Part shown: positions 10,921 through 52,750 of the stretch, one piece after another | Position numbering within the stretch: position 1 is the stretch's first letter | Layout of the letters: each line of letters starts with the position of its first letter | NCBI RefSeq assembly: GCF_044704955.1 | Contig: NC_092006.1 | Span: 5,952,001 to 6,016,000, forward strand | DNA from: Pristiophorus japonicus | Taxonomy: Eukaryota | Direction of reading: 5' to 3' | DNA length: 64,000 nt | Notes under the pieces: generated by a model | Told to the model about the DNA's origin: nothing | Seen by the model: only the letters and a program-made list of their open reading frames with translations | Databases searched by the model: none | Translations under genes and position numbers: made by a program

Positions 10921-10936
10921 TAGCCCCTGTATTATT

Positions 10937-13875: not shown

Positions 13876-13923
13876 AACACAGTAACTGGATAGATTGGCC
13901 GCCCCTCCCTCCACCGCCCCTAC

Positions 13924-16147: not shown

Positions 16148-16450
16148 CGCTCAGCGATGAGATGCTTTCACTGATGAAATTGCCGGTGGAATTGACCGGA
16201 ACGGCGCAAGTGCAGACAGCGCCACTCCGCCATGTTTCCGCCGAGACGCTGAGGTGACTCCCGACCGTGAGCGTCCCGTCCGGCTCGGTGGTCCCGGAGT
16301 CGCTCCGTCCCTCGGCGAGCCGTCCCGAAACATTCCAGCGGACGGGAAGGGAATCGGGAGTCAGGCTTCTGACCAGACACAGCAGCGGGACCCTCGCCAG
16401 CGAGGGAATTTCGTCCTGCGGCGGAGTTAAGAGCTGTATTTCCGGAGACC
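16148..16450 (-). CDS. R1 exon 3, C1-set Ig domain: SPEIQLLTPP..LLCLVRSLTPDSLPVRW..EPDGTLTVGSHLSVSAETWRSGAVCTCAV..
   Basis: cggcAG / GTAACT, 303 nt, phase 1-1, open. C1 hallmarks present: LxCLV, W, DG(T/S), SxLSV, WxSG.V.TC.V. Confidence 0.92.
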
Positions 16451-16527
16451 CTGCCGAATTTGGGGAGGATTAATATTCGACGGAAATCGGCCGTTATTTA
16501 TGACGAAATTCGTAAACGAATTCTTAC

Positions 16528-16866
16528 CTCTAATGAGCAATTTCGAGCCGTTTCCGAATATAAGGTGCAATAGACTAGATTTCTTAGCTGCGCAGTAATA
16601 CACCCCTGAATCGTTCCCCTGGACCTCATTCACAAACAGAGAGTAAATATTGAATTTGTCGTCAATTTGTCCGGAAAATCTCCCTTCAGGAAGATTGTAG
16701 TTCCTCACGGTGTAAACTTTCTGGAGAGGTCCTCGGTTCTGCTGCTTATACCACTGCACAGCTCGAGTCAGCAACTGACCAGCGTGACAATCCGCCTTGA
16801 AGGTACTGCCAACCGAGAGAGTCTGGACCGACGGACTCTGGGCGAAATAGTCCTGGGAGGCAATAA
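16528..16866 (-). CDS. R1 exon 2, germline-joined VJ domain: IASQDYFAQSPSVQTLSVGSTFKADC..WYKQQ..RFSG..DSGVYYCAAKKSSLLHLIFGNGSKLLIR
   Basis: ttcttctctcAG / GTAAGA, 339 nt, phase 1-1. B-strand Cys, WYxQ, DSGxYYC and the FGxG J motif are all in one exon, with no RSS. Confidence 0.95.
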
Positions 16867-17414
16867 CTGAGAGAAGAACATGATCACCACGGGATCTGTT
16901 ACAACAGGAATAAACACCGCTTCAGATCAAGAAACCCACAAAGCAGTGAACGGTGAGAGAGGCGCTCGTGTTCAAGGAGCCTCATTTCTAATTGAGTTCA
17001 ATGCTGAGGGTTAACATTGAGCCAATAACAGGAGANNNNNNNNNNNNNNNNNNNNNNNNNNNNNNNNNNNNNNNNNNNNNNNNNNNNNNNNNNNNNNNNN
17101 NNNNNNNNNNNNNNNNNNNNNNNNNNNNNNNNNNNNNNNNNNNNNNNNNNNNNNNNNNNNNNNNNNNNNNNNNNNNNNNNNNNNNNNNNNNNNNNNNNNN
17201 NNNNNNNNNNNNNNNNNNNNNNNNNNNNNNNNNNNNNNNNNNNNNNNNNNNNNNNNNNNNNNNNNNNNNNNNNNNNNNNNNNNNNNNNNNNNNNNNNNNN
17301 NNNNNNNNNNNNNNNNNNNNNNNNNNNNNNNNNNNNNATAGAGAGAAAGAGAGAGAAACAGATAGAGAAAAAGAGAGAGAGAAAGAAAGATAAAGAGATA
17401 GAGAGAGGGAAAGA

Positions 17415-17716
17415 AAGAAAGAGTTGGATTTATATAACGCCTTTCGCAACCATTGGACTCAAAGTGCTTTACAGCCAATGAAGTACTTTTTGAAGTGTGG
17501 TCACTGTTGTAATGTGGGAAACACGGCGCACAGCAAGCTCCCACAAATAGCAATGTGATAATGACCCAGATCATCTGTTTTCGAGATGCTGATTGAGGGA
17601 TAAATATTGGCCCCAGGACACAGGGGAGAACTCCCCTGCTCTTCTTCGAAATAGTGGCCGTGGGATCTTTTACGTCCGCTCGAGAGAGCAGACGGGGCCT
17701 CGGTTTAACGTCTCAG
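17415..17716 (-). mobile_element. Partial Deu-SINE in R1 intron 1
   Basis: Same core and tail as the other copies. Confidence 0.75.
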
Positions 17717-17878
17717 GCAATAGATGCAGAATATTGACATTGGGTCTATTTCCCACCAGCCTGAGATATTGCAAGATGCTAATATCAGCGAACGCAGCGC
17801 GTAATCTCCGACTCGGCTGACGAGCTCGCTGATCTTACGCCGCAGTTCCGCCATGGATTACCAGCAAATTCGACTGAC

Positions 17879-17921
17879 CTGGAAAGAGAAGGGCGAGCAC
17901 GCAGGGAGCTAAGCGATGCAT
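17879..17921 (-). CDS. R1 exon 1 signal peptide MHRLAPCVLALLFP
   Basis: ATG at 17921, 43 nt, donor G|GTCAGT. Same length and phase as the R2/R3 leaders. The full R1 model is 939 nt, 312 aa, with no stops. Confidence 0.85.
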
Positions 17922-19810: not shown

Positions 19811-20385
19811 ACTTGTGCCAACAAAAATAGCCCACATTCTGCCCGGCGTATGCCCATGAAATTCTGACGCTGGCCAAAGCAGGAGCAAGTGGGTAGCACT
19901 CTCGTCTCAGAGTCAGAAGGTTGTGGGTTGAAGTACCACTTCAGAGATTGAGCATACAACCCAGGGATGGAATACTTCTCGACCTGGAGTCCAGCTTGGT
20001 GCTGTCTATAATCCACATTTTTCCATTTCCTGGATTATCCAGCTAACCAATTACTCACATGAACGTTCCTTTCTACGTAAGTAAGAATAACATGCAGCAC
20101 AGCTCAATGCAAAATCCAACGTGCATGTTTTGGTAAACTGATAAAACCTTATATCTGAATAACATTTTAAAAATGGCAAGTTATGCCAGTAAACAGCAAT
20201 AAGAGTGTATACCCGGCTATAATCCACAAACCCCCGCATTCAAAGTACATAATGAAGTGAAAACAATATGTATTTTCTCACTCTGACATTGCAATGACTC
20301 AGTAACGATTTCCCAGTCAATTGGTCTTGCAACAGAGCACTGACTCAATTTAATGGAGCTGAACTTCGATCTGAATGGGGTCGCC

Positions 20386-20403: not shown

Positions 20404-21449
20404 ACATGTGATAAGGGCCTGTGTCTGTTAGCGTTTCTCTGTTTCCCCTCCCCCCCCCCACCTTAGCGGCTGCTTTGCCCGCTTCAGAGCTGAGGTCACG
20501 AAGCAGAGTGAGGACCATATCCTTCCTGTGACGTCCCAGATATAAGATCATGACATCAGAACATAAGACACAGGAGCAGGAGTCGGCCATTTGGCCCCTT
20601 GAGCCTGCTCCGCCATTCAATACGATCACGGCTGATCTTCGACCTCAGTCCCACTTTCCTGCACTGTCTCCTTGATTCCCTTAATATTCCAATATCTGTC
20701 TTGAATATACTCACCGACTGAGCCTCCACAGCCCTCTGGGGCAGAGAACTCCAAAGATTCGCCACCCTCTGAGTGAAGAAATTCCTCCTCATCTCAGTCC
20801 TGAAGTTTCTCCTGAATTGCCCCTTGGATTTCTTGGTGACTATCTGATATTGATGGCCTCTAGTTATGCGCTTCTGGCATAGGTGGATACACTCTGTTTG
20901 TGTCTACTCGATCAAAACCTTTCATAATTTTAAAGACCTCGTCTGTGCTGTAAGGTGATTCTAATAGCAGGTAAATTCCGCCAGAATTTTGCTGAAGATA
21001 TCACTGCACTGCATTATTGAAAAGCGCAATTTGAATTTAAAATAATCCACTTTTAATAGTAAATGTGACAGGGTTCATTCCCAGGATACAACCAGAGAAC
21101 GCCCTGGATCCACTTACACGCCAGCTTTGCCAACAATGCCCCGGAGTCAGTGCCTGAGCTACCCTGTGGGTCCTTGGTTTCACTGACACACCGCACACAT
21201 TTGTTCTTTCAATCTGTGCTGTAAATCGGCCGCAGAGATATTCTGAGTGCATCTGGACCGAGCGATCAAAGAGCAGGATTCACATCCACAACGCTGGGGT
21301 TTAAAACCAGTTTAATTTATCTGTAAACATTACATATGAATTATATCACGTGCTGTATAAAGATGTACTCAGCACGGAAACCACAAATACAAGAATTTGG
21401 CATTACAATACTTGAAATTAGTTGAGTATATTCAAGACGGAGAGCGATA

Positions 21450-22378: not shown

Positions 22379-22423
22379 TCAGAGTGTTGGCTCCGTGTTA
22401 AATGCCAGCTGGGCATAAAGAGT
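22379..22423 (-). CDS. R2 terminal exon TLYAQLAFNTEPTL*
   Basis: tttctctcacAG, phase 0. Paralogous to 9997-10074 with CGA changed to TGA. Minus-strand ATTAAA at 21316-21311, at the position matching the R1 AATAAA. Confidence 0.8.
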   Translation of the reverse strand, partial: TLYAQLAFNTEPTL

Positions 22424-25023: not shown

Positions 25024-25130
25024 CTGACTGCCGCTCCGGACAGCCGCCACAGACACCATCAGGAACAGGAGAAGCGTCGCCAACAAATTCAGGACCAACC
25101 GCAATCCGCAGGCGCTCTGTGACGGAGACA
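25024..25130 (-). CDS. R2 stalk/TM exon VSPSQSACGLRLVLNLLATLLLFLMVSVAAVRSGSQ
   Basis: tttcttacAG / GTAGGG, 107 nt (10 nt shorter than R1/R3), phase 1 to 0. Confidence 0.82.
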
Positions 25131-27222: not shown

Positions 27223-27373
27223 GGTAAGGACAGTGGCCAAATACAGCGCTATGTATTCTGAATTCCCTGTCATTCTTCTGAACTCCAGGCCTTCAATATA
27301 CAAAAAGTTGCGAAGAAGTGAGACTCACATCACCATTGAAGATATTAGTGAAGGGGACACCGGCCACAGTTAC

Positions 27374-27679
27374 CTCCCGGAGATGCGACGCTTTCACTCA
27401 GGAGATCCCCGGTGGCGTTGATCGGAACGGTGCAAGTGCAGACGGCGCCGCTGCGCCAGGTTTCGGCCGAGACGCTCAGGACGCTTCTGGCGGTATAGCT
27501 CCCGTCCGGCTCCAGCGTCCCGGGCTCGCTCCGTCCCTCGGCGGCCCGTCCCGCAACCAGCCAGCGGATGGGGAAGGAGTCGGGAGCAGCGCCCCGCACC
27601 AGACACATCAAGGTCACCCTCTCCAGCCGGGGAATCTCAGCCGGCGGCGGCGTTAAGAGGAAGAGGACCGGGGGGCCCG
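27374..27679 (-). CDS. R2 C1-set exon AGPPVLFLLTPP..LMCLVRG..PIRW..EPDGSYTARSVLSVSAETWRSGAVCTCTV..
   Basis: ccatctAG / GTAACT, 306 nt, phase 1-1, C1 motifs. Confidence 0.92.
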
Positions 27680-27770
27680 CTAGATGGAAGGGAAATTGGA
27701 ATTAACCAGGCGCACAAGGTAGGTTTGAATTGGTGTCTCGACGCACAATTGGATGGACGAGTGGGATTAC

Positions 27771-28109
27771 CTGTGATCACCAGCGTGGTGCCAGTCCCGA
27801 ATATCAGGGACCGATTCCCGACGTTTGGAGCAGCGCAGTAATACCGCCCAGAATCGCTCCTCTGGACGTTGTCAATGACCAGCGAATGATTCCCCGATTG
27901 CTCGCAAACCTTGCCGGAAAATCTTCCCCCGGGCATCACGAACCGTCCGGTTTTGTAAACGAGCCGCATGCCCTCTCGGTGCCAGTGTGTGTACCAGTAA
28001 ACGATGCTTGGGGCCAACCTCCCGGTCTGGCATTGAAGTTTGACCAGGCTCCCAACATCGGCCGTTAGCAGCGCCGGAAATTGGCTCAAGACCGCCTGAG
28101 ACACGACAG
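27771..28109 (-). CDS. R2 germline-joined VJ exon ..VKLQC..YWY..RFSG..DSGRYYCAAPNVGNRSLIFGTGTTLVIT
   Basis: cttgtctcAG / GTAATC, 339 nt, phase 1-1. V-set motifs plus FGTG. Confidence 0.95.
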
Positions 28110-29099
28110 CTGAGACAAGGTTGCGGGGGGGACACAAAAATTTAAAAAAACACAATATTAACAACAGGTTATAGGCCCCCGAGTCACCCTGGATACCGAC
28201 ACATCTCAAATTCCCCTCCACTGGCGCGTCGGGAGCGCGTGTGGGAAATTCCGCCGCGCTGCGCACCGTTAAATTGCGCCTCTCCGCCCGCAATTCCCAC
28301 AGGCGCACAGTCCGAGTCCGTTCGCTGTGAAATCCGCTCCAATCATTGGCGAGCACCATGGCGACTGGCTGCAGTTAAGATTGCAAAATCCTTCTCCCAA
28401 ACCGATTATGCTTCCCCCTGGTCTAACCCGGCTCTCCAATCCATCTCTCCAGGGGTTGGGGACCGGGGGGCGCTTGATTGTGTTAAAATGGGGCGATAGC
28501 TTTCTCACTAATTCCACTAGACAGGCCCCCCTCTCCCAACGGCAGACCCTCGCCTTCAAATACCGGAGTTCACTGACATCTTTATCTCAGTTAGGGGGCA
28601 GTTCAGTGTCACATTCGCTTCCACTCACCCATCACAATGTTCGGCTCCAAAGTCGCGCTATCGGTATTGAGCGAAGCCCGCACACCTTTATACTTTGCCC
28701 AATATCTAATCTGCTTCTGAAAAAAATTATAGTTAAACGCAAACTTGTGTATCAGCGAACGATGCAACACAGGAGGCCATTCGGCCCATCAAACCTGTGT
28801 TGTGCCGGCTCTGTGACAGAGCGACTCAATCATTCCCACTCCGCCCCTGCTCTTTCCCCACAGCCCGGCATATTGCCTACTTTCCAAATATTTATCCAAT
28901 TCCCCCGTTTGAAAGTCACTTTTTCATCTGCTCCCAGTGCCCCTTTCAAGTAGCGCGTTCCCGAGCACAAGCTCTCAGGGCTTGAAAACACGTCCTGATC
29001 TCCCCCTCTGGTTCTGTTACCGATTATCTCAAACATGTGTCCTCTGCTTCCCCACCCTCCTCCCACTGGAAACAATCTCTCCTTCTTTACTCGATCGGA

Positions 29100-30090
29100 A
29101 ACCTTCCCCTTATTAATTCAATACAAAACCCTTCTCCTTATTAATTCGCTCCAAAACCCTTCTCCTTATTAATTCTCTCCAAAACCCTTCTCCTTATTAA
29201 TTCTCTACAAAACCCTTCTCCTTATTAATTCGCTCCAAAACCCTTCTCCTTATTAATTCTCTACAAAATCCTTCTCCTTATTAATTCTCTACAAAATCCT
29301 TCTCATTATTAATTCTCTCCAAAACCCTTCTCATTATTAATTCTCTCCAAAACCCTTCTCCTTATTAATTCACTCCAAAACCCTTCTCCTAATTAATTCT
29401 CTCCAAAGCCTTTCTCATTATTAATTCTCTCCAAAACCCTTCTCATTATTAATTCTCTCCAAAACCCTTCTCCTTATTAATTCTATCCAAAATCCTCCTC
29501 CTTATTAATTCTCTCCAAAACCCTCCTCCTTATTAATTCTCTCCAAAACCCTTCTCCTTATTAATTATCTCCAAAATCGTTCTCCTTATTAATTCGCTCC
29601 AAAACCCTTCTCCTTATTAATTCTAACCAAAACCCTTCTCCTTATTAATTCTCTCCAAAATCCTTCTCATTATTAATTCTCTCCAAAACCCTTCTCATTA
29701 TTAATTCTCTCCAAAACCCTTCTCCTTATTAATTCTATCCAAAACCCTTCTCATTATTAATTCACTCCAAAACCCTTCTCCTAATTAATTCTCTCCAAAG
29801 CCTTTCTCATTATTAATTCTCTCCAAAACCCTTCTCATTATTAATTCTCTCCAAAACCCTTCTCCTTATTAATTCTATCCAAAATCCTCCTCCTTATTAA
29901 TTCTCTCCAAAACCCTCCTCCTTATTAATTCTCTCCAAAACCCTTCTCCTTATTAATTCTATCCAAAACCCTTCTCATTATTAATTCACTCCAAAACCCT
30001 TCTCCTAATTAATTCTCTCCAAAGCCTTTCTCATTATTAATTCTCTCCAAAACCCTTTTCCTTATTAATTTGCTCCAAAACCCTTCCCTT
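29100..30090 (-). repeat. 28 bp minisatellite, about 35 copies, R2 intron 1
   Basis: Unit TTATTAATTCTCTCCAAAACCCTTCTCC on the + strand. Confidence 0.92.
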
Positions 30091-30147
30091 GGTTTACTCT
30101 CTCCTAACCCCTTCCTCACTCTGGCAAAACATCGAAGGCTATCTCAC

Positions 30148-30190
30148 CTTGGAAGAGATGGAACAGCACACAGAGGCCACAGAAGCTCAT
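30148..30190 (-). CDS. R2 signal peptide exon MSFCGLCVLFHLFQ
   Basis: ATG at 30190, 43 nt, G|GTGAGA. Identical to the R3 leader. The full model is 840 nt, 279 aa. Confidence 0.85.
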
Positions 30191-30887
30191 TATCACTGCC
30201 CCAGGAGGGTTGAACTCTGATGCTGGGACTGTCAGCTCAGGGAGGAATGGTTGTCAGCAGGTCGGTGCGAGGCTGGTGTGAAATGCCGAGCCAATTGTGG
30301 TAAGCACGCACTGTGTTTATTAATAAATGTACGATTTGGGCTGCAAAATAGTGCCGAAGCAGAAAGCTCTGTGTGGGTTTCCTGTTTTTACAGGTAAAGA
30401 GATGAAACACACACACACCATCTGTGTTACAGAAGGCACCTCGTCTCTACGCATGTTAGTTTGACCACACTTGGAGCACTGCGCACGGTTCTGGTCTCCA
30501 TCTTTCAAAAAAATATAGAGACACTGGAGCGGGTGTAAACAAGATTCAGAAAGATGACACCAGAACTGAGAGCGGTGAGACTGATCAGGAAAGGCTCAAC
30601 AGACTGGGGCACTTTTCTCCAGAAAATTACATAGTATGTACATCACAGAAACAGACCATTCAGCCCCACCGCTCCGTGCCGGGGTTTATGCTCCACACCA
30701 GCCCCTCCCACCCCTCTCCATATCACCCCATCCCCATATCCTTCTATTCCTTTCTCCCTCATGTGTTCATCCAGCCTCCCCTTAAATACATCGATACTAT
30801 TCGCCTCACCCCCTCCCTGTGGCAGCGAGTTCCACATCTCAGCGCACTCTGGGTCAAGAAGTTTCTCCTGAATTCCCCATTGGGTTT

Positions 30888-32358
30888 ATAAGAACATAAG
30901 AAACAGGAGCAGGAGTAGGCCATTCGGCCCCTCGAGCCTGCTCTGCCATTTAGTACGATCATGGCTGATCTGATCATGGACTCAGCTCCACTTCCCTGCC
31001 CGCCTCCTTATTCCCTTATCGTTTAAGAAACTGTCTTAAATTTATTCAATGTCCCAGCTTCCACAGCTCTCTGAGGCAGCAAATTCCACAGATTTACAAC
31101 CCTCTGAGAGAAGAAATTTCTCCTCATCTCAGTTTTAAATGGGCGGCCCCTTATTCTAAGACCATGCCCCCTAGTTCTAGTCTCTCCCATCAGTGAAAAC
31201 ATCCTCTCTGCATCCACCTTGTCAAGCCCCCTCATAATCTTATATGTTTCGATAAGATCACCTCTCATTCTTCTGAATTCCAATGAGTAGAGGCCCAACC
31301 TAATCAACCTTTCCTCATAAGTCAACCCCCTCATCCCCGGAATCAACTGAGTGAACCTTCTCTGAACTGCCTCCAAAGCAAGTATATCCTTTCGTAAATA
31401 TGGAAACCAAAACTGTATTCAGTATTCCAGGTGTGGCCTCACCAATACCCTGTATAGCTGTAGCAAGACTTCCCTGCTTTTATACTCCATCCCCTTTGCA
31501 ATAAAGGCCAAGATTCCATTGGCCTTCCTGATCACTTGCTGTACCTGCATACTATCCTTTTGTGTTTCATGCACAATTACCCCCGGGTCCTGCTGTACTG
31601 CAGCACTTTGCAATCTTTCTCCATTTAAATAATAACTTGCTCTTTGATTTTTTTCTGCCAAAGTGCATGACCTCACACTTTCCAACATTATACTCCATCT
31701 GCCAAATTTTTGCCCACTCACTTAGCCTGTCTCTGTCCTTTTGCAGATTTTTTGTGTCCTCCTCACACATTGCTTTTCCTCCCATCTTTGTATCGTCAGC
31801 AAACATGGCTACGTTACACTCAGTCCCTTCTTCCAAGTCGTCAATCTAGATTCCAAGTCGCCAATACAGCACTGATCCCTGTGGCAGCCCCCCTAGTTAC
31901 TGATTGCCAATCTGAGAATGAATCATTTATCCCGACTCCTGTTTTCTGTTCGTTAGCCAATCCTCTATCCATGCTAATATATTACCCCCAAACCCGTAAA
32001 CCTTTATCTTGTGCAGTAACCTTTTATGTGGCACCTTGTCAAATGCCTTCTGGAAGTCCAAATACAGCACTTCCACTGGTTCCCCTTTATCCATCTTGTT
32101 CATTACATCCTCAAAGAATTCCAGCAAATTTGTCAAACATGACGTCCCCGTCATAAATCCATGCTGACTCTGCCTGACCCAATTTTGCTTTTCCAAATGT
32201 CCTGCTACTGCTTCTTTAATAATGCACTCCAACATTTTCCCGACCACAGATGTTAGGCTAACTGGTCTATAGTTTCCTGATTTTTGTCTGCCTCCTTTTT
32301 TATATAGGGGCGTTACATTTGAAGTTTTCCAATCTGCTGGGACCTCTCCAGAATCCAT
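30888..32358 (-). mobile_element. 1.5 kb CR1 fragment including part of the RT domain (disrupted)
   Basis: NYRPVSLTS, QHGF, YLDFQKAFDKVPH and FADDTK, with frameshifts. Confidence 0.92.
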
Positions 32359-34656
32359 TTATGAGTGACTGTCTTATATCGATGGCCCCCTCGTTCTGGT
32401 CTTCTCCCTCAAGTGGAAGCATCTCTATTGTGAGGCAGTAGTGGATATGATCCATTCAGACTTCCCTATAACGGTGGTGAGCACATATTTGAGGTATGGA
32501 GAACCCAGATGCAATGAAAATGGGTTAAGAATGTAAAAAAAACACAAGATAAGGCCCGAGGACTGTGCAAGAAACAGACCTGAGAAACATAGACATATAA
32601 ACATAGAAAATAGGTGCAGGAGCAGGCCATTCGGCCCTTCGAGCCTGCACCACCATTCAATATGATCATGGCTGATCATGCAACTTCAGTACCCCATTCC
32701 TGCTTTCTCTCCATTCCCCTTGATCCCTTTCGCCGTAAGGGCCACATCTAACTCCCTTTTGAATATATCCAACGAACTGGCCTCAACAACTTTCTGTGGT
32801 AGAGAATTCCACAGGTTCACAATTCTCTGAGTGAAGAAGTTTCTCCTCATCTCGGTCCTAAATGGCTTACCCCTTATCCTTAGACTGTGACCCCTGGTTC
32901 TGGACTTCCCCAACATCGGGAACATTCTTCCTGCATCTAGAATTGGCTTCGAAAAGGCGGATCCCAAACAATAGTGAGAGTTAATAACTAACTTTACTGC
33001 ATGCATTTCTGTTCGAACTATAAACGAGGTCAGGTGTAATCGAATAAACAGGGCTCGACGATTTCTGGAGACTGGGGCAAACCGGGTTCAACTGGGTGCT
33101 GTCTATAATACACGTGTCTTAATTTCCAGAATTATCCAGATAACCAATTATTCACACGAGTAAATAAGATTAACTCGCAGCACAACTCATTGCAAAATCC
33201 GTCGTCCCCTTTTAGGATTGATGGAACTTTATGTCAGAATATATGGGTTTAAAAAGAACAAATTATGCCAGAAAGCAGCAGTAAGGGTGTGTTACCAGCT
33301 ATAATCTGCAAACTCTGTATAAAACGTTGAGGGGGCTTGGAACCAGAAAAGCCAGCGTGTTGCAGACAATGTGCTGTCCCAGTATGGAGATCTGTGCTCC
33401 AATTTATTCTGTCCCAGGCCTCAAATCAGCAAATGGGCGGTTTGGTCACTCCTGGGAATCGCCACTTCTATCATCGTGGCATCCCCACCGACACCTGGGA
33501 GTCCCTGTGGCCAAAGACCAGTGGAGGAAGTGCATCCGGGAGGGCGCTGAGCACCTCGAGTCTGGTCGCCGAGAGCGTGCAGAAACCAAGCGCAGGCAGC
33601 GGAAGGAGCGTGCGGCAAACCTGTCCCACCCTCCCCTTACCCTCAACCACTGTCTGTCCCACCCGTGACAGGGGACTGTGGCTCTCGTATTGGACTGTTC
33701 GGCCACCGAAGGACTCATGCTAAGAGTGGAAGCGAGTCTTCCTCGATTCCGAGGGCCTGCCGACGATGATGATTATATTGTAGGACAGCTCTGTCTTCTA
33801 CGTCAATGTGTATGCGCGTCGTGCACAACGGTTGATTCACATCCGAATCATTGAAAGATTTGTTTGCCAGTGATATCAAGGGCTTTTATTTTGCACTGGA
33901 AGTTGAGAATAAATGGACCTGAAACGGGAAGTTCTACTGACAGCACTGCGGTATAGCGCCGGCTAGCGATGAAATTGATGTCGTGCAACACCCCCCCCAA
34001 AGGCCAGTTATCGCACTCAGTACCCCAGGGTGAGAGGTTCCTTGGGTATTTGACGATCCGGACATTTCTTTGGCCAGTAACGCGCGGACCCACTAATTCA
34101 AGAGGACTGGTGGGTCAGTGCTCAGTTGAAATCTGATATCCCCCACACAACAGAGAAATGCAGTTCATTGCAGGGGTCCCGCAAATAACCCATCTTTTAG
34201 CACCAGGAGGAGGCCATTCAGCCCCTCGAGCCTGCGGTTCCATTCAGTTAGCTCATGGGCTGATCTGTATCTTAACCCCATCCACCTGCCTTGGTCCCAT
34301 AACCCTGAATACCCTTACCCAACAAATAACTATCCATCTTAGTTTTGACATTTTACAATTGCCCCCCCCCCCAGCCTCGACAGCTTTCTGAGGTAGAGAG
34401 TTCCACATTGCCACTACCCTTTGTGTGAAGAAGGGCTTCCTGACATCAACCCTCAATGGCCTGGCTCTAATTTTAAGGTGACATCCCCTTGTTCTGGACT
34501 CCCCCCACCAAGAGGCCATAGTTTCTCTCGATCTACCCCCTCAACTCCTTCAATCATCTTAAATACTTCAAATAGATCATTCCTTGATCTTCTATATTCA
34601 AGAGAATTCAAGCCTCGTCCATGCAAACGGTCCTCACAATTGAACTCTTTCCCATA

Positions 34657-35390
34657 GTGTCAGCTGTGGTTGTGGGTAGCACACTCGTCTCAGAGTCAGA
34701 AGGTCATCGGTTCAAGTCCCACTCCAGGAACTTGAGCATATAAATCCAAGATGGCACTCCCAGTGCAGTGCTGAGGGAGCGCCGCACTGTCGGAGGGGCG
34801 GTGCTGAGGGAGCGCCGCACTGTCGGAGGGGCGGTGCTGAGGGAGCGCTGCACTGTCGGAGGGGCAGTGCTGAGGGAGTGCCGCACTGTCGGAGGGGCAG
34901 TGCTGAGGGAGCGCCGCACTGTCAGAGAGGCGGTACTGAGGGAGTGCCGCACTGTCGGAGGGGCAGTGCTGAGGGTGCGCCGCACTGTCGGAGGGGCCGT
35001 ACTGAGGGAGTGCCGCATTGTCATAGGGACGATACTGAGGGAGCGCCGCACTGTCGGAGGTGCTGTCTTTCAGATGAGACATTTAAACCGAGGCCCTGTC
35101 TGCCCTCTCAGGTGGATGTAAAAGATCCCTTGGCACTATTTCGAAGAAGAGTAGGGGAGTTATCTCTGGTTCTTGGCCAATATTTATCCCTCAATCTACA
35201 AAGCAGATGATCTGGGTCATTATCACATTGCTGTGTGTGGGAGCTTGCTGTGCGCAAATTCAGCAGCTGCGTTTCTCACATTACAACAGTGACTATACTC
35301 CAAAAGTACTTCATTGGCTGTAAAGCGCAGTTTGAGACGTCCAGTGGTCATGAAAGGCGCTATATAAATGCAATGGCTTTCTTCTTTCTA
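34657..35390 (+). mobile_element. Full-length Deu-SINE with about 9 copies of the 33 bp unit
   Basis: tRNA head, core, and GCGCTATATAAATGCAA tail. Confidence 0.8.
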
Positions 35391-36964
35391 GCCCCTGCAT
35401 AAAGTATCTGTTTAAGTCTCAAATGAGGTATTGTATACTGGGATTACTCCAACCCCGGTAAATTTCTCTATTTGAACTAGCCGGAACTACGCGTGAGTTG
35501 GATAAAATTTACCAAAGATATTTGATAGCATTCCATTGCTACCACAAGTCACACACCACCTCGGGATTTCCGGATCTGCTTTACAGTCAACGGAGCAACA
35601 TTTTCAAGTGTGGTCACTGGTGCAATGTCGGGACACGCGGCCAATTTCCGCACAGCAAGCTCCCACAAACTCACGCTTACCAAAAGAAAATCACTAAACT
35701 GGCTGTAAAGCGCGTTGGGACGTCCTGATGTCATGAAAGGCACTATATAAATTCCCTAAATTAAGAAGTGTGGGTTATAGACAGGCCCCAGTCTCTAGAA
35801 CTTGTCGGTCCCTGTTTACCGATTACACCTAGTTCGAACAGAAATGCACACAGTAAAGTTAGTTATTTATTCTCAATATTGTTTCCGATCCTCCTTTTCT
35901 AAGAGGAGCCAATTCTAGTTCTCGGGTCTGTTTCTTGCACAGTCCTCGGGCCTTATCTTGTGTGTTTTTACATTCTTAACACGTCTACATTACATCTGAC
36001 TTCTCCATACCTCAAATATGTGCTCACCCCCCACCCCGTTATAGAGAAGGCTGTATGGATCCTATCCACTACCGTCTCACAATAGAGATGTTTCCACTTG
36101 TGGGAGAGCCTAGATCTAGGGGGCCATCACTATACGACAGTCACCCATAAATCCAATGGGGAATTCAGGAGAAACTTCATCACCCAGAAAATGGGGAGAA
36201 TGTGGAACTCGCTGCCAAAGGGAGGGGTTGAAAATAGGTGCAGGAACAGGCCATTCGGCCCTTTGAACCTGCACCACCATTCAATATGATCATGGCTGAT
36301 CATGCAACTTCAGTACCCCATTCCTGCTTTCTCTCCATACCCCCTTGATCCCTTCAGCCGTAAGGACCACATCTAACTCCCTTTTGAATATATCCAACGA
36401 ACTGGCCTCAACAACTCTCTGCAGGAGAGACTTCCACAGGTTCACAATTCTCTGAGTGAAGAAGTTTCTCCTCATCTCGGTCCTAGATGGCTTACCCCTT
36501 ATCCTGAGAGTGTGACCCCTGGTTCTGGACTTCCCCAACATCGGGAACATTCTTCCTGCATCTACCCGGTCCAATCCCGGCAGAATCTGAGGCGAATAGT
36601 ATCGATGCATTTAAGGGGAGGCTGGATCAACACATGAGGGAGAAAGTAATAGAAGGATATGGGGATGGGGTGAGATGGAGAGTGGTGGGAGGGGCTGGTG
36701 TGGAGCATAAACCCCGGCACGGAGCGGTGGGGCTGAATGATCTGTTTCTGTGATGTACATTCTCTCTAATTTTCGAGAGAAAAGTGCCCCAGTCTGTTGA
36801 GCCTTTCCTGATCAGTATAACCTCTCTCAATTCTGGTGTCATCTTTCTGAATCTTGTTTACACCCGCTCCAGTGTCTCTATATTCTTTTGAAAGATGGAG
36901 ACCAGAACCGTGCGCAGTGCTCCAAGTGTGGTCAAACTAACATGCGTAGAGACGAGGTGCCTTC

Positions 36965-37205
36965 TGTAACACAGATGGTGTGTGTGTGTTTTATCTCTTT
37001 ACCTGTAAAAACAGGAAACCCACACAGAGCTTTCTGCCTTGGCACTATTTTGCAGCCCAAATCGTACATTTATTAATAAACACAGTGCGTGCTTACCACA
37101 ATTGGCTCGGCATTTCACACCAGCCTCGCACCGACCTGCTGACAACCATTCCTCCCTGAGCTGCCAGTCCCAGCATCAGAGTTCAACCCTCCTGGGGCAG
37201 GGATA
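36965..37205 (+). promoter_or_regulatory. R3 promoter (mirrored for R2 at 30191-30430): E-box, ETS ACAGGAAA near 37011, RUNX ACCACA 37095-37100, ATTGG
   Basis: Motif matches directly upstream of the leader ATG. No Ig octamer seen. Confidence 0.4.
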
Positions 37206-37248
37206 ATGAGCTTCTGTGGCCTCTGTGTGCTGTTCCATCTCTTCCAAG
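37206..37248 (+). CDS. R3 signal peptide exon MSFCGLCVLFHLFQ
   Basis: ATG at 37206, G|GTGAGA, 43 nt. Confidence 0.85.
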
Positions 37249-37307
37249 GTGAGATAGCCTTCGATGTTTTGCCAGAGTGGGGAAGGGGTTAGGAGAGAGT
37301 AAACCAA

Positions 37308-39220
37308 GGGAAGGGTTTTGGAGCGAATTAATAAGGATAAGGGTTTTGGAGAGAATTAATAAGGAGAAGGGTTTTGGAGAGAATTAAAAAGGAGAAAGGT
37401 TTTGGAGGGAATTAATAAGGAGAAGGGTTTTGGATAGAATTAATGAGGAGAAGGGTTTTGGAGAGAATTAAAAAGGAGAAGGGTTTTGGAGGGAATTAAT
37501 AAGGAGAAGGGTTTTGGATAGAATTAATGAGGAGAAGGGTTTTGGAGAGAATTAATAAGGAGAAGGGTTTTGGATACAATTAATCAGGAGAAGGGTTTTG
37601 GATAGATTTAATAATGAAAAGGGTTTTGGATAGAATTAATAAGGAGAAGGGTTTTGGAGAGAATTAATAAGGAGAAGGGTTTTGGATAGAATTAATGAGG
37701 AGAAGGGTTTTGGAGAGAATTAATAAGGAGAAGGGTTTTGGATAGAATTAATAAGGAGGAGGGTTTTGGAGAGAATTAATAAGGAGAAAGGTTTTGGATA
37801 CAATTAATAAGGAGAAGGGTTTTGGATACAATTAATAAGGAGAAGGGTTTTGGATAGAATTAATAAGGAGAAGAGTTTGGATAGATTTAATAATGAAAAA
37901 GGTTTTGGATAGAATTAATAAGGAGAAGGGTTTTGGAGAGAATTAATAAGGAGACGGGTTTTGCATAGATTTAATAAGGAGAAAGGTTTTGAAGAGAATT
38001 AATAAGGAGAAGGGTTTGGAGAAAATTAATAAGGAGAAGGGTTTGGATAGATTTAATAATGAGAAGGGTTTTGGATAGATTTAATAATGAGAAGGGTTTT
38101 GGATAGAATTAAAATGAGAAGGGTTTTGGAGAGAATTAATAATGAGAAGGGTTTTGGAGAGAATTAATAAGGAGAAGGGTTTTGGATAGAATTAATAATG
38201 AGAAGGGTTTTGGATAGAATTAATAATGAGAAGGTGTTTTGGATAGAATTAATAATGAGAACGGTTTTGGATAGAATTAATAAGGAGAAGGGTTTTGGAA
38301 AGAATTAATAAGGAGAAGGGTTTTGGAGAGAATTAATAAGGAGAAGGGTTTTGGATAGAATTAATAATGAGAAGGGTTTTGGATAGAATTAATAAGGAGA
38401 AGGGTTTTGGAAAGAATTAATAAGGAGAAGGGTTTTGGAGAGAATTAATAAGGAGAAGGGTTTTGGATAGATTTAATAAGGAGAAGGGTTTTGGATAGAT
38501 TTAATAAGGAGAAGGGTTTTGGATAGAATTAATAATGAGAAGGGTTTTGGATAGAATTAATAAGGAGAAGGGTTTTGGAAAGAATTAATAAGGAGAAGGG
38601 TTTTGGAGAGAATTAATAAGGAGAAGGGTTTTGGATAGAATTAATAATGAGAAGGGTTTTGGATAGAATTAATAATGAGAAGGTGTTTTGGATAGAATTA
38701 ATAAGGAGAAGGTGTTTTGGATAGAATTAATAAGGAGATGGGTTTTGGAGAGAATTAATAAGGAGAAGGGTTTTGGATAGAATTAATAAGGAGAAGGGTT
38801 TTGGAGAGAATTAATAAGGAGATGGGGTTTGGAGAGAATTAATAATGAGAATGGTTTTGGAGAGAATTAATAATGAGAAGGATTTTGGAGAGAATTAATA
38901 ATGAGAAGGGTTTTGGAGAGAATTAATAAGGAGAAGGGTTTTGCAGAGAATTAATAAGGAGAAGGGTTTTGGAGAGAATTAATAAGGAGAAGGGTTTTGG
39001 AGAGAATTAATAAGGAGAAGTGTTTTGGAGCGAATTAATAAGGAGAAGGGTTTTGGAGCGAATTAATAAGGAGAAGGGTTTTGGAGCCAATTAATAAGGA
39101 GAAGGGTTTTGGAGAGAATTAATAAGGAGAAGTGTTTTGGAGCGAATTAATAAGGAGAAGTGTTTTGGAGCGAATTAATAAGGAGAAGGGTTTTGTATAG
39201 AATTAATAAGGGGTAGGTTT
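37308..39220 (+). repeat. 28 bp minisatellite, about 68 copies, R3 intron 1
   Basis: Unit GGAGAAGGGTTTTGGA(G/T)AGAATTAATAA. Confidence 0.92.
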
Positions 39221-40215
39221 CCGATCGAGTAAAGAAGGAGAGATTGTTTCCAGTGGGAGGAGGGTGTGGGTAAGCAGAGGACACATGTTTAAGATAATCG
39301 GTAACAGAACCAGAGGGGGAGATCAGGACGTGTTTTCAAGCCCTGGGAGCTTGTGCTCGGGAACGCGCTGCCTGAAAGGGGCACTGGGAGCAGATGAAAA
39401 AGTGACTTTCAAACGGGGGAATTGGATAAATATTTGGAAAGGAGGCAATATGCCGGGCTGTGGGGAAAGAGCAGGGGCGGAGTGGGAATGATTGAGTCGC
39501 TCTGTCACAGAGCCGGCACAACACAGGTTTGATGGGCCGAATGGCCTCCTGTGTTGCATCGTTCGATGATACACAAGTTTGCGTTTAACTATAATTTTTT
39601 TAAGAAGCAGCTTAGATATTGGGCAAAGTATAAAGGTGTGCGGGCTTCGCTCAATACCGATAGCGCGACTTTGGAGCCGAACATTGTGATGGGTGAGTGG
39701 AGGCGAATGTGACACTGAACTGCCCCCTAACTGAGATAAAGATGTCAGTGAACTCCGGTATTTGAAGGCGAGGGTCTGCCGTTGGGAGAGGGGGGCCTGT
39801 CTAGTGGAATTAGTGAGAAAGCTATCGCCCCATTTTAACACAATCAAGCGCCCCCCGGTCCCCAACTCCTGGAGAGATGGATTGGAGAGCCGGGTTAGAC
39901 CAGGGGGAAGCATAATCGGTTTGGGAGAAGGCTTTTGCAATCTTAACTGCAGCCAGTCGCCATGGTGCTCGCCAATGATTGGAGCGGATTTCACAGCGAA
40001 CGGACTTGGACTGTGCGCCTGTGGGAATTGCGGGCGGAGAGGCGCAATTTAACGGTGCGCAGCGCGGCGGAATTTCCCACACGCGCTCCCGACGCGCCAG
40101 TGGAGGGGAATTTGAGATGTGTCGGTATCCAGGGTGACTCGGGGGCCTATAACCTGTTGTTAAGATTGTGTTTTAATTTTTGTGTCCCCCCCCCCCCCCC
40201 GCAACCTTGTCTCAG

Positions 40216-40554
40216 CTGTCGTGTCTCAGGCAGTCTTGAGCCAATTTCCGGCGCTGCTAACGGCCGATGTCGGGAGCCTGGTCAAACTGCAATGCCAGAC
40301 CGGGAGGCTGGCCCCAAGCATCGTTTACTGGTACACACACTGGCCCCGAGAGGGCATGCGGCTCGTTTACAAAACCGGACGGTTCGTGACGCCCGGGGGA
40401 AGATTTTCCGGCGAGGTATGCGAGCAATCGGGGAATCATTCGCTGGTCATTGACAACGTCCAGAGGAGCGATTCTGGGCGGTATTACTGCGCTGCTCCAA
40501 ACGCCGGGAATCGGTCCCTGATATTCGGGACTGGCACCACGCTGGTGATCACAG
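40216..40554 (+). CDS. R3 germline-joined VJ exon ..DSGRYYCAAPNAGNRSLIFGTGTTLVIT
   Basis: ctcAG / GTAATC, 339 nt. I count 9 nucleotide differences from the R2 V exon, 4 of them nonsynonymous. Confidence 0.95.
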
Positions 40555-40645
40555 GTAATCCCACACGTCCATCCAATTGTGCGTCGAGACACCAATTCAA
40601 ACCTGCCTTGTGCGCCTGGTTAATTCCAATTTCCCTTCCATCTAG

Positions 40646-40939
40646 CGGGCCCCCCGGTCCTCTTCCTCTTAACGCCGCCGCCGGCTGAGATTCCCCGGCT
40701 GGAGAGGGTGCCCTTGATGTGTCTGGTGCGGGGCGTTGCTCCCGACTCCTTCCCCATCCGCTGGCTGGTTGCCGAGGGACGGAGCGAGCCCGGGACGCTG
40801 GAGCCGGATGGGAGCTATACCGCCAGAAGCGTCCTGAGCATCTCGGCCGAAACCTGGCGCAGCGGCGCCGTCTGCACTTGCACCGTTCCGATCAACGCCA
40901 CCGGGGATCTCCTGAGTGAAAGCGTCGCGTCTCCGGGAG
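40646..40939 (+). CDS. R3 C1-set exon (in-frame 12 nt deletion relative to R2)
   Basis: tctAG / GTAACT, 294 nt, phase 1-1, open. Confidence 0.92.
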
Positions 40940-42177
40940 GTAACTGGAGCTACTGGCGGTTTGCCAAATAGTTAGTGATAATAATGTTCATTATAGTATT
41001 GCTGGGATGTGAGGGTTTTTTTAGCACGAGAGATTGTGTAGAATGGGCCTATGTTCTCTGGAGTTTCGTATAAGATTATGAGGGGGCTTGACAAGCTGGA
41101 TGCAGAGAGGATGTTTCCACTGATGGGGGAGTCTAGAACTAGAGGGCATAATCTCAGAATAAGGGGCCGCCCATTTAAAACTGAGATGAGGAGGAATTTC
41201 TTCTCTGAGGGTTGTAAATCTGTGGAATTCGCTGCCTCAGAGAGCTGTGGAAGCCGGGACATTGAGTAAATTTACGATAGAAATAGACAGTTTCTTAACT
41301 GATAAGTAATTAAGGGGTTATGGGGAGCGGGCACGGAAGTGGAGCTGAGTCCATGATCGGATCAGCCATGATCGTATTGAATGGCGGAGCAGGCTCGAGG
41401 GGCCGAATGGCCGACTCCTGCTCCTATTTCTTATGTTCTTATGGAGTTTCGAAGAAGGAGAGGTGATCTCATTGAAACGTACAAGACTCTGAGGGGGATT
41501 GACAGGGTGGATGCAGGGAGGGTGTTTCCCCCCGGGGCTGGGGAGTCTAGAACCAGGGGTCACACAGTCTCAGGGTAAGGGGTTGGCCATTTAAGACTAA
41601 GATGGGGAGAACGTTCTTCACTTGCGATTTACTACGTTACAGGCGCTATATAAATATAAGTTGTTGTATATTGGGAGCACTAGTATGGAAAAGTAGTATT
41701 TTATAAATGACATGAGTTTGGAAAACAGCGAGACAGAGAGAGACCATATACACAAACCTGTAAATGTGGGAAGGGCAGGTTGGCGAGCTGGTTAAACTGG
41801 CTTACGGGGTACTTGAATTTATATAAGGAGATATTGGAACAGTTGACCAAAAGCTTGGTCAAAGAGGGAGGTTTTACAGAAGGAGGAGAGGCGGAGAGGT
41901 TTAGGGAGAGAGTTCCAGAGCTTGGGGCCCCAGGCAGCTGAAGGCACGGCCACCAATGGTGGAGCGATAGAAATCGGGGGGAATGCTCAAGAGGCCAGGA
42001 TTGGAAGAGCGCAGAGATCACAGCCACTTACGTTGAGACAGTTCATAGTTCGTCACCATGTCTTTGATGATTCGGGCCAAAAACCAGCTTCAAACCCTCA
42101 GCGGACGAGGTTTCAGAATTTGACTGAATTATTTTGTGTTTCGCTCATTTCACAAGAGTTGTCTTTCTGCCGTTCAG

Positions 42178-42294
42178 AGCCCCTTCACAGCTCGACCTGC
42201 CGCTTCGCGCTTTATGCCAGCCTGGCGATGGCTCCTCTTGTGATGGGGTTGATCGGTGTCGCGGTGGCACGGCGTGGCAAGACTCGCCAACCAG
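42178..42294 (+). CDS. R3 stalk/TM exon EPLHSSTCRFALYASLAMAPLVMGLIGVAVARRGKTRQP
   Basis: ctgccgttcAG / GTACTG, 117 nt, phase 1-1. PLHS..C at the start and TRQ at the end, as in R1. Confidence 0.85.
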
Positions 42295-42396: not shown

Positions 42397-42455
42397 AGAG
42401 TGCAGCCACGACTGACCGAGGTACCGCTTCAAGAATAAAGAAAGCAGAAGAGGAG
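42397..42455 (+). CDS. R3 59 nt cytoplasmic exon (E)SAATTDRGTASRIKKAEEE
   Basis: cttcttaaacctAG / GTAGGT, phase 1 to 0, same size as R1 exon 5. Confidence 0.8.
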
Positions 42456-44797: not shown

Positions 44798-44833
44798 ACT
44801 ATGTACGCGCACCTGGCATTCGCTGTGGATTAG
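44798..44833 (+). CDS. R3 terminal exon TMYAHLAFAVD*
   Basis: ttccttcacAG, phase 0, TAG at 44831-44833, AATAAA near 45030. The full model is 888 nt, 295 aa. Confidence 0.85.
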   Translation, partial: TMYAHLAFAVD

Positions 44834-49640: not shown

Positions 49641-50174
49641 AGAGGGGCATTGAGGGTTATACGGATAGAGTGAGATGAGGAAAGACGGGAGGAGGCTCGA
49701 GTGGGGCATAAACGCCGGCACGGACTGGTTGGGCCGAGTGGCGTGTTTCGGTGGCGTATACCCGCTGTAATCCGTGTGATGGTACAAGTGCTGATCCCTA
49801 GCAGTGGCCACACCACTCAGTTTAAGCGGGATGCGCTGATTTGCGACGTGCGTCAGAATAAATTGGAGCACGAAGCGTGTTGTCTGGACCACGCTGACCG
49901 TTCCCCATCAATCCCGCCCAGAAGATGTGGGTATCAGACCCGTGGAGGTATACCCTGTGGGATCTGAGGGTTACTGTGCCTCAGTGCCGAAACGTGGCCG
50001 ATGATCGCGACTGATCAGGTTAAACTGACGCAGTACGCCGGGGATGTCACAATACGGGCTCCACTGGTACCTGTACATTGCAACAACTTGCATTTATTTG
50101 CCTCCTGTAACATCCCAAGGAGCGTTATCACACTGGAGTAATGTGCACAATTCTGGCCACCGCACCACGAACAC

Positions 50175-52750
50175 AAGAACTAGGAGCAGGAGTCGGCCAT
50201 ACGGCCCCTCGAGCCTGCTCCACCATTCAATACGATCCTGGCTGATCCGATCATGGACTCAGCTCCACTTCCCCACCCGCTCCCCGTAACCCTTCACTCC
50301 CTTATCGCTCAAAAACCTGTCTATCTCCGCCTTAAATATATTCAATGACCCAGCCTCCACAGCTCTCTGGGGCAGAGAATTCCACAGATTTACCACCCTC
50401 GGAGAGAAAAAATTCCTCCTCATCTCAGTTTTAAATGGGCGGCCCCTTATTCTAATACCATGCCCCCTAGTTCTAGTCTCCCCCATCAGTGGAAACATCC
50501 TGTCTGCATCCACCTTGTCGAGCCCCCTCATTATCTTATACGTTTTGATAAGATTACCTCTCATTCTTCTGAACTGCAATGAGTAGAGGCCCAACCTCCT
50601 CAAACAATCCACATAAGACAACCCCCTCATCTCTGGAATCAACCGAGTGAATCTTCTTTGAGCTCCCTCCACAGCAAGTGTATCCTTCCTTAAATACGGA
50701 GACCAAAACTGCATGCAGTACTCCAGGTGTGGCCTCACCAATACCCTGTACAGTTGTAGCAGGACTTCCCTGCTTTTATACTCCATCCCCCTTTGCAATA
50801 AAGGCCAAGATTCCATTGGCCTTCCTGATCACTTGCTGTACCTGCATACTAACCTTTTGTGTTTCATGCACAAGGACCCCCAGGTCCCGCTGTACTGCAA
50901 CACTTTGCAATTTTTCTCCATTTAAATTATAATTTGTTTTTCTATTATTTCTGCCATTTTCCCACATTATACTCCATCTGCCAAATGTTTACCCATTCAC
51001 TTAGCCTGTCTATATCCCTTTGCAGATTTTTTGTGTCCTCCTCACAACTTGCTTTCCCTCCCATCTTTGTATCATCAGCAAACTTGGCTACACTACACTC
51101 TGTCCCCTCTTCCAGGTCATCTATGTATATTGTAAACAGTTGTGGTCCCAGCACCGATCCCTGTGGCACACCACTAACCACTGATTTCCAACCCGAAAAG
51201 GACCCATTTATCCCGACTCTCTGCTTTCTGTTCGCCAGCCAATTCTCTATCCATGCTAATACATTTCCTCTGACTCTGCATACCTCTATCTTCTGCAGTA
51301 ACCTTTTGTGTGGCACCTTATCGAATGCCTTTTGGAAATCTAAATACACCACATCCATCGGTACACCTCTATCCACCATGCTCGTTATATCCTCAAAGAA
51401 TTCTAGTAAATTAGTTAAACATGATTTCCCCTTCATGAATCCATGCTGCGTCTGCTTGATTGCACTATTCCTATCTCGATGTCCCGCTATTTCTTCTTTA
51501 ATGATAGTTTTCAAGCATTTTCCCCACTACAGATGTTAAACTAACCGGCCTATAGTTACCTGCCTTTTGTCTGCCCCCTTTTTTAAACAGAGGCGTTACA
51601 TTAGCTGCTTTCCAATCCACTGGTACCTCCCCAGAGTCCAGAGAATTTTGGTAGATTATAACGAATGCATCTGCTATAACTTCCACCATCTCTTTTAATA
51701 CCCTGGGATGCATTTCATCAAATCCACGGCCTTCTGTTTACCGACCCACCTGCCCCTGTGAACAGCATGTCCGTATTTGCTCGATTCAAAACCCTTCGTC
51801 ATTTTGATGTGGGAGACTTGCAGAAAGCAGAACGGGGTTTAAAATGAGCGTGGAAAAGGGATTAGAAATGGCACTTTGTAGGGCACTTTAAAGAGGTGAC
51901 GCACTCCCTTTAAAATGTGAAGGCCGTCTTGTCCAATGGAGATTGTGTGTCCTTCAATCACAGAATCACAGAAATTTACAGCGCGGGAGGAGGCCATTCG
52001 GTCCATCGTGTCCGTGCCGGCCGACCAAGAGCCACCCAGCCTAATCCCACTTTCCAGCTCTCAGTCCGGAGCCTTGTAGGTTACGACACTTCAGGTGCAC
52101 ATCCAAATGTGGTGAGGGTTTCTGCCTCTACCACCCTTTCAGGCAGTGAGTTCCTCCCCAGATCCCCACCACCATCTGGGTGAAGACATTTCCCCTCAAA
52201 TCCCCTCTAAACCTCTCCCCCAATTACTTTCAATCTCTGTCCCCTGGTTGTTGACCCCTCTGCCGAGGGAAACAGGTCCGTCCTATCCACTCTATCCAGG
52301 CCCCTCATCATTTTACACCCCTCAACAAGGTCTCCCCTCTGTTCCAAAGAAAACAACCCCAGCCTATCCACAGGAACATAAGAAATAGGAGCAGGAGTCG
52401 GCCATTCGGCCCCTCGAGCCTGCTCCGCCATTTAATACGATCATGGCTGATCCGATCATGGACTCAGCTCCACTTCCCTGCCCGTCCCCTTATCCCCTTA
52501 TCGGTTAAGAAATTGTCTCTCTCTGTCTTAAATATATTCAATGTCCCAGCCTCCACAGCTCTCTGGGGCAGAGAATTCCACAGATTTACCACCCTCTGAG
52601 AGAAGAAATTCCTCCTCATCTCAGTTTTAAATGGGCGGCCCCTTATTCTAAGATCGTGCCCCCTAGTTCTAGTCTCCCCCATCAGTGGAAACATCCTCTC
52701 TGCATCCACCTTGTCAAGCCCCCCTCATAATCTGATACGTTTCGATAAGA
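50175..52750 (-). mobile_element. CR1 fragments: RT-containing 50175-51720 (frameshifted) and 51955-52750
   Basis: [25 protein letters not shown]. Confidence 0.9.

Follow-up and report, generated by a model that had tools for sequence, protein, structure and literature searches.

Head-to-head VJ-C1 receptor genes in a tandem array of the sawshark Pristiophorus japonicus share a promoter-to-C1 tract, probably through patchy gene conversion

We analysed a window of 64,000 nucleotides from the sawshark Pristiophorus japonicus (contig NC_092006.1, here C32; C32:5,952,001-6,016,000), part of a 5.9-Gb genome in which CR1-like repeats are abundant. The window contains three complete receptor genes, R1 (-), R2 (-) and R3 (+), and only the 3' end of a fourth, R0 (+). 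R2 and R3 lie head to head. The likely explanation of their structure, in our judgement, is that they are old paralogues of a T-cell-receptor-like family of surface receptors that combines a joined variable-joining (VJ) domain, a C1-set domain, a transmembrane (TM) segment and a TxYxxL tyrosine motif, and that repeated, patchy gene conversion has kept them alike from the promoter to C1 as the TM and tail exons diverged.

R1, R2 and R3 are each made up of a 43-nt leader, a 339-nt VJ exon, a single C1 exon, an exon for stalk and TM, and a last exon encoding T(L/M)YA(Q/H)L; a 59-nt spacer exon is present as well in R1 and R3. The window models of all three are open, and every splice site is GT/AG. 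The VJ exon ends in FGxG followed by a GT donor, and a scan for exact recombination signal sequence (RSS) heptamers and nonamers around the V exons of R1-R3 found none. Pfam V-set and C1-set both score above cutoff (43.9 and 34.7 bits). The window corresponds to one unit of a cassette of four genes, and the assembly has 12 copies of this cassette. Counts among units use the seven distinct ones (units 1-6 and 12), with units 7-11 left out as exact copies. The main features of R2 and R3 are given below in window coordinates, with reference to the public sequencing runs X1 and X5-X7.

37206-37248 (+): R3 leader exon, 14 codons plus 1 nt, GT donor
37282-39211: 28-bp satellite of R3 intron 1, 69 copies (Tandem Repeats Finder, TRF)
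40216-40554 (+): R3 single-exon VJ domain with FGxG J motif at its end; Pfam V-set 45 bits (cutoff 26); spliced in the X5 contig
40646-40939 (+): R3 C1-set exon; Pfam C1-set 32.7 bits (cutoff 21); 12-bp in-frame deletion private to the window unit
40940-40946 (+): 3' end of the homogenised tract in R3 (donor plus 7 nt); same in 7/7 units, bridged by an X1 contig
42178-42294 (+): R3 stalk (Cys) and TM exon; joined to C1 in the X5 contig
42397-42455 (+): R3 cytoplasmic spacer exon (gene model; X5 depth in the bins covering the exon)
44798-44833 (+): R3 last exon, TxYxxL motif TMYAHL (gene model)
36591-37205 (+): R3 promoter part of the tract, pairing with 30191-30805; distal 260 bp 5.8% and proximal part 1.7% diverged
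35785-36231 (+): R3 old inner arm end, pairing with 32937-33078, 32357-32586 and 30806-30884
36232-36590: R3-arm-specific insertion, high-copy repeat (self-comparison)
30148-30190 (-): R2 leader exon
29102-30114: 28-bp satellite of R2 intron 1, 36 copies (TRF)
27771-28109 (-): R2 VJ exon
27374-27679 (-): R2 C1 exon (gene model and comparison with R3)
27367-27373 (-): 3' end of the homogenised tract in R2, with R1-like intron beyond (alignment)
25024-25130 (-): R2 stalk and TM exon, 10 nt shorter than that of R1, ending in phase 0
22379-22423 (-): R2 last exon, TLYAQL; direct join to the TM exon is predicted and phase-compatible, splice not observed
30885-32356 (-): R2-arm-specific CR1-like long interspersed element fragment with a broken reverse transcriptase (RT), seen by translation; homologue at 50169-51640, 83%; its CR1 family label is presumed from the RT motif
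32587-32936: second R2-arm-specific insertion, high-copy repeat (self-comparison)

The satellite is assigned to intron 1 because the leader exon sits inward of it. An in-frame read-through start at 39963, used in the P0029 model, was rejected as the main start: it gives no signal peptide, and the leader at 37206 matches homologues. The length of the satellite varies widely among units, giving a leader-to-V span of about 2.1-6.1 kb and an R3 intron 1 of about 3.0-6.1 kb. The leader-to-leader spacer is nearly constant (6,872-6,915).

Self-BLAST aligned 27367-30114 with 40946-38202 in inverted orientation. With gaps excluded, R2 and R3 differ at 0/43 positions of the leader, 9/339 of V and 5/294 of C1 (plus a 12-bp deletion), and the noncoding DNA between and before these exons is equally close: 2/91 in the V-C1 intron, 14/989 in the 3' part of intron 1 and 6/355 in the proximal promoter. 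Divergence is 1.7% over this core (37/2186, proximal promoter to donor), 5.8% in the distal promoter (15/260) and 11-13% in the inner arm ends (15/129, 26/228 and 10/78), where collinear homology is broken by the three arm-specific insertions at 30885-32356, 32587-32936 and 36232-36590; the inner ends together (51/435) differ from the core with Fisher P=3e-19. The tract includes about 0.6 kb of promoter and both introns as well as the exons. Its 3' edge follows GTAACTG, 7 nt beyond the C1 donor, and does not shift by a single base among the 7 R2 and 7 R3 copies; only faint intron homology continues past it (z=4.1). Amino-acid identity is 91% in V and 98% in C1 vs 32% in the TM-tail part.

Past the edge R2 resembles R1, at 67-85% (z=8.9 for the post-C1 intron). 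The TM exon matches at 70% (z=11), the end of the intron before the last exon at 82%, and the last exon plus downstream DNA at 85%. The R2-R1 match is also found on the upstream side of the tract, and the 3' flank of R3 has no alignable match with either R1 or R2 (z 1.2 and -0.6). The features compared are as follows.

9997-17921 (-): R1 gene, with leader 17879-17921, V (type B) 16528-16866 and C1 16148-16450
R1 3' exons (-): TM 13924-14040, spacer 12487-12545, last exon (TLYAQL) 9997-10074; open 312-aa model, GT/AG
21036-21326 (-): R2 3' flank matching the R1 3' flank at 8897-9192, 72.8% by self-BLAST (75%, z=31)
32940-33320 (-): R2 far-upstream element matching R1 19989-20231, 73% over 357 columns, z=27; it extends past the R2/R3 homology

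An earlier note on this DNA, made from the letters alone, had described the near-identical inverted promoter, leader, V and C1, the stop right after GTAACTG, the R1-like character of R2 beyond it, and inner ends that are more diverged and carry arm-specific insertions (one of the three is CR1-type). All of this is borne out, and uniform divergence along the arms, which the note had named as speaking against it, is not what we see. Its interpretation, an old inverted homology with a younger core homogenised by gene conversion, is supported by the stepped divergence and by the comparison of copies below. The restriction of conversion to the ligand-binding exons did not hold, since divergence in the promoter (1.7%) and in intron 1 (1.4%) is no greater than in V (2.7%).

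The copies were compared over 701 ungapped columns of V-C1 in 7 R2 and 7 R3 sequences. V-C1 has 0 fixed and 9 shared differences between R2 and R3, vs 12 fixed and 7 shared in promoter plus leader (Fisher P=0.003), and 6/9 of the shared polymorphisms are at sites other than CpG transitions. Sites polymorphic in both genes number 12, vs 1.55 expected. R2 and R3 of the same unit are closer than under random pairing (distance sum 147, where all 5040 pairings average 154.4; P=0.005). The R3 copy of unit 5 carries the R2 allele at 7/8 class-biased sites in alignment columns 130-390, through V. Variable sites of R3 are concentrated in V-C1 (33/701 vs 22/1473 just outside, P=2.5e-5), and its TM and spacer exons have 0% diversity among the 7 units; the per-exon diversity omits, in each class, one C1 whose length differs. 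The shared differences and the same-unit closeness support repeated, patchy gene conversion.

The same data bear on an account without conversion, in which a single recent inverted duplication placed promoter, leader, V and C1 before an older TM/tail module and tandem expansion followed. The sharp 3' edge, identical in 14 copies, is what such an event would leave, and R2 and R3 still form weakly separate clades with 19 class-biased V-C1 sites. However, a single duplication predicts uniform divergence along the arms, no shared polymorphism and no same-unit signal, whereas we find three levels of divergence with three arm-specific insertions, 9 shared sites (6 non-CpG) and P=0.005; it also fits poorly with the faint intron homology past the edge. 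We regard this account as improbable.

Several observations weigh against conversion or limit its extent. The V-C1 tree still splits R2 from R3, weakly (70/86, not starred), and the between-class distance (2.9-3.0%) is larger than the within-class distance (1.8%), from which we conclude that exchange proceeds slowly. Same-unit pairing has a small effect (5%), and the units are not independent. R1 V is just as variable among units (3.2%) and has no partner, so high V diversity alone needs no conversion. For R2, diversity inside vs outside the tract does not differ significantly (P=0.06). Exchange between R2 and R3 is real, but slow and patchy.

The earlier note had also called R2 chimeric, and separate histories of the exons support this in part. 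Synonymous divergence from R1 falls into two levels, 0.39 for the shared C1 and 0.37 for R2 TM vs 0.69 for the shared V and 0.62 for R3 TM; between R1 and R2, synonymous differences number 32/81 in C1 and 55/80 in V (P=3e-4). In a V tree of 33 elasmobranch proteins, R2 and R3 belong to a cross-species type A and R1 to a type B (99/97), and V rejects an R1+R2+R3 clade (P=0.0007). C1 trees reject the A/B split (approximately unbiased (AU) test, P=0.02) and tend toward grouping by lineage; the concordant exon trees that the note had listed as a counter-sign are absent. The TM-tail protein tree, built without seven proteins whose tails are truncated or aberrant, did not resolve R1-R3. With moderate strength, the exon comparisons suggest that not R2 alone but both genes are mosaic: the V would stem from the R3 lineage, the C1 from that of R1 and R2. 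Three points count against this assignment: the direction for C1 depends on P=0.08 vs the R1-R3 TM, from a short ungapped alignment; the supporting C1 clade is unstarred (86/78); and in horn shark and Mustelus, too, an R1-like tail accompanies a type-A V, so that the R2 type may date from further back and not be a chimera of the sawshark.

Between type A and type B genes of horn shark, identity is 43-45% in V, 81-85% in C1 and 76-81% in the TM-tail part. Horn shark P0003-P0005 vs P0007 have the reverse homogenisation, with differing V types on near-identical C1-TM-tail modules. Block exchange, as judged from these alignments, recurs in the shark receptor family with differing boundaries.

A mosaic pattern could in principle come from the assembly, through mis-phased haplotypes or misplaced repeat copies, and the array gives some ground for caution. 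A genome search found 12 copies each of R2 and R3 at 4.75-6.0 Mb of the same contig, and for R0 and R1 a search at protein level gave 12 C1 exons apiece in the same array; none of the 131 candidates scored, out of 945, is a close relative outside it. Units 7-11 repeat units 2-6 at an offset of exactly 559,609 bases, and 141,045 positions sampled from the two gave 0 mismatches; a block of about 565 kb is present twice (C32 about 4.778-5.344 Mb and 5.338-5.904 Mb). The assembly is imperfect in the array, because this block is duplicated without a mismatch; the twin is probably an untrimmed assembly overlap or false duplication that inflates 7 units to 12. Yet both junction types are found in 7 units whose mutual differences outside the tract are about 0.2-1.2%, DNA run X1 has a contig (40899-41066) across the junction of C1 and intron in R3, and a contig of run X5 links the shared C1 to the R3 TM. 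Since the X1 contig bridges the R3 junction and the junctions recur in seven non-identical units, the pattern is not a single mis-join. An artefact could affect the fine mosaics and how many units are counted, but the basic pattern would stand, and we consider it highly improbable as an explanation.

R3 is the intact, transcribed member of the pair. Its reading is open in 7/7 units, and a 1,111-nt contig of public run X5, from a study other than that of X1, joins R3-type V, C1 and TM without introns; X5 was judged to be RNA on the sole ground that this contig skips introns. R3 has no cover in X6 or X7, and the R2 TM and last exons have none in X5-X7, which is not evidence that either gene is silent. 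R1 has a stop in 2/7 units. R2 is broken in 3/7, by a stop in 2 and by a 30-bp C1 deletion in 1. The R2 stop codon (window 22379-22381 and counterparts) is an Arg codon in 3/7 units, where the tail would run on.

From their sequences, the products are predicted type I surface receptors; their stalk cysteine is conserved, being kept in at least 90% of 27 aligned proteins. The tail motif is TLYAQL in R1 and R2 and TMYAHL in R3. A motif of the form [TIVS]xYxxL is present in 16/25 elasmobranch homologues; the 9 without it comprise six ray proteins with YAQL at the end and three models from which the last exon is missing. Because TxYxxL lies between the consensus of the ITIM (immunoreceptor tyrosine-based inhibitory motif) and that of the ITSM (switch motif), inhibitory or switch signalling is predicted for all. 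The ITSM consensus is given as TxYxxV/I in PMC11599192.

The earlier note had likened the genes to paired-receptor families, and for pairs of opposing sign the sequences do not agree: R1-R3 models all keep T(L/M)YA(Q/H)L, and none has a charge within its best 19-residue TM window, as found with a hydrophobicity scale, so the opposing-pair reading is not borne out at this level. It can be put more specifically, with R2 as an activating or decoy receptor, either through an Arg at the outer TM edge and an adaptor or through read-through of the TM donor into a tail without tyrosine, and with selection matching the ligand-binding parts. The layout resembles SIGLEC11/16 as described in PMC5701461. 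R2 has lost the spacer exon (no remnant was found, best z=2.9), has an Arg three residues after the stalk Cys, and its TM-to-last-exon splice is not observed; a TM exon joined straight to the last exon is predicted to place the motif 6 residues from the membrane. But this Arg is outside the best 19-residue TM window and is followed by 20 non-charged residues, R2 differs from R1 over the 8 codons of TLYAQLAF by synonymous changes only, the gene is broken in 3/7 units, and introns and promoter are homogenised as much as exons. We think an opposing pair unlikely here.

PRARP genes, known as PRARP1 and PRARP2 in chicken, carry non-rearranging V and J in one exon without RSS and encode a V-set domain followed by one C1-set domain, a TM segment and a cytoplasmic ITIM/ITSM-like motif; their products are disulfide-linked surface dimers on lymphocytes. 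R1-R3 have the joined VJ without RSS, the V-set plus one C1-set domain, and the TM segment with a tyrosine motif, and they resemble PRARP further in having one such motif and a stalk cysteine. From these features the shark genes probably belong to the PRARP family. The sawshark differs in having at least 7 cassettes with four genes each, V of two old types, and conversion in blocks of domains. PRARP is named as a VJ gene in PMC10751288 and PMC11599192. A further 25 elasmobranch proteins, from sharks and rays, match the receptor family at E below 1e-38, and distant proteins of the same architecture are found in sturgeon, lungfish, coelacanth, caecilian, newt, turtles and ostrich, several of which have a receptor record and a PEX11B record on contigs of equal size.

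Two other kinds of shark gene were considered and ruled out. UrIg and UrIg2 are also non-rearranging VJ-C1 genes with a split leader and with conversion among UrIg2 C exons, but according to PMC12227049 they have three to eleven C domains, are linked to the major histocompatibility complex (MHC) or AgRC, and UrIg is secreted, whereas R1-R3 have one C1, a tyrosine tail and a place beside PEX11B. A profile scan found only one C1 domain per gene in all units scanned, which excludes this identity. Germline-joined shark immunoglobulin (Ig) light chains likewise have a single-exon VJ, one C1 exon and repeated miniclusters. They lack the stalk, TM and tyrosine-motif exons into which R1-R3 continue, and the X5 contig, which splices C1 to the TM exon, excludes them. 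A scan of three blocks, which covered units 1, 2, 6, 12 and part of 11, found no further V/C1 gene inside these units, of Ig light-chain type or otherwise. In units 2 and 6, the R3 model has exactly the sequence of UniRef protein P0001, a record named 'Ig kappa light chain-like, Pristiophorus japonicus'.

The setting is new; the process itself is already known, which makes it less surprising. SIGLEC11 and SIGLEC16 are head to head about 9 kb apart, with a converted region of about 3 kb that includes upstream DNA (PMC5701461). Like them, R2 and R3 are head to head a few kb apart, their tract spans upstream DNA and a V-set exon, a simple repeat is associated and some copies are broken; unlike them, R2 and R3 both keep TxYxxL and are tandemly amplified as a pair, SIGLEC16 lacking signalling motifs and activating through an adaptor according to the same text. 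Merohomogenisation, described for the paired opposing receptors KLRC, KLRI, KLRB, Ly49 and PIR (PMC3210942), is likewise a homogenisation of part of a gene that spares TM and signalling exons. There the receptors are opposing and the exons mainly ligand-binding, while here promoter and introns are included and no opposing tail is evident. No description of the shark cluster was found in the open-access literature; the supplements of PMC10751288 and PMC12227049 may list its genes.

In the conversion that we propose, the inverted arms, with leaders about 7 kb apart, would pair, both inside one chromatid and from unit to unit, and short tracts would be exchanged. These could not pass the C1 donor because the introns beyond have lost homology; conversion would stop at that decayed intron and thin toward the inner ends broken by insertions. 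The 28-bp satellite, of variable length in both arms, could promote pairing. Long-term exchange in both directions probably produced the outer part that the two genes have in common, its V coming from the R3 lineage and its C1 from that of R1/R2. The proteins would be surface receptors, probably disulfide-linked through the stalk Cys, that send an inhibitory or switch signal through the terminal tyrosine motif, and R2 would be a short-tailed variant that probably also feeds alleles into R3. A bolder form, which we put forward tentatively and hold rather doubtful, is that sharks run a small fixed repertoire of T-cell receptor (TCR)-like inhibitory receptors by germline conversion, with two ancient V types remounted again and again on different C1-TM-tail modules, so that sawshark genes have outer parts in common and horn shark genes inner parts. 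In sawshark, the amplified array of at least 28 genes would use decaying R2 copies as a donor pool to diversify the expressed R3 ectodomain. Such an R2-to-R3 donor pool would be similar to chicken antibody diversification by pseudogene donors, but in the germline.

Partial homogenisation of immune receptors is usually credited to selection that matches activating and inhibitory partners. Because both R2 and R3 keep an inhibitory-type motif, we favour proximity with homology, or diversification driven by donors, as causes that would suffice. Among genes that do not rearrange, those of this family are some of the closest relatives of antigen receptors, and they are mislabelled as Ig chains in databases. 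With V and C1 exons of different histories, whole-protein trees on antigen-receptor origins can mislead; seven distinct units make the rate and direction of conversion measurable.

The remaining gene of the cassette, R0, is a distant V-C1-TM-YASL relative with a V that lacks FGxG (L009:5076-5814 plus window 1782-3689, +); V and C1 are outside the window, about 4.2-4.9 kb to its left. Look-alikes occur in horn shark and manta (P0070 and P0110). R0 is a possible heterodimer partner of R1-R3.

1782-3689 (+): R0 3' exons, TM near 1782-1884 and last exon near 3606-3689, YASL; edges approximate, by eye

The cluster is flanked by PEX11B and a PAQR-family gene. The genes around it are PEX11B (L078:466-6677, -), a dermatopontin-family gene (L080:3389-5276, +), the PAQR/HlyIII-family gene, identified to Pfam level (L010:727-1155 and L012:2037-2345, +), and a single-exon class A G-protein-coupled receptor (L018:1617-2798, +), which we take to be relaxin-3-receptor-like. 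The spacer between units contains a retrovirus-like element (L005:1167-8957, -) with Pfam protease, RT, RNase H and integrase domains, which appears to be multi-copy in the array.

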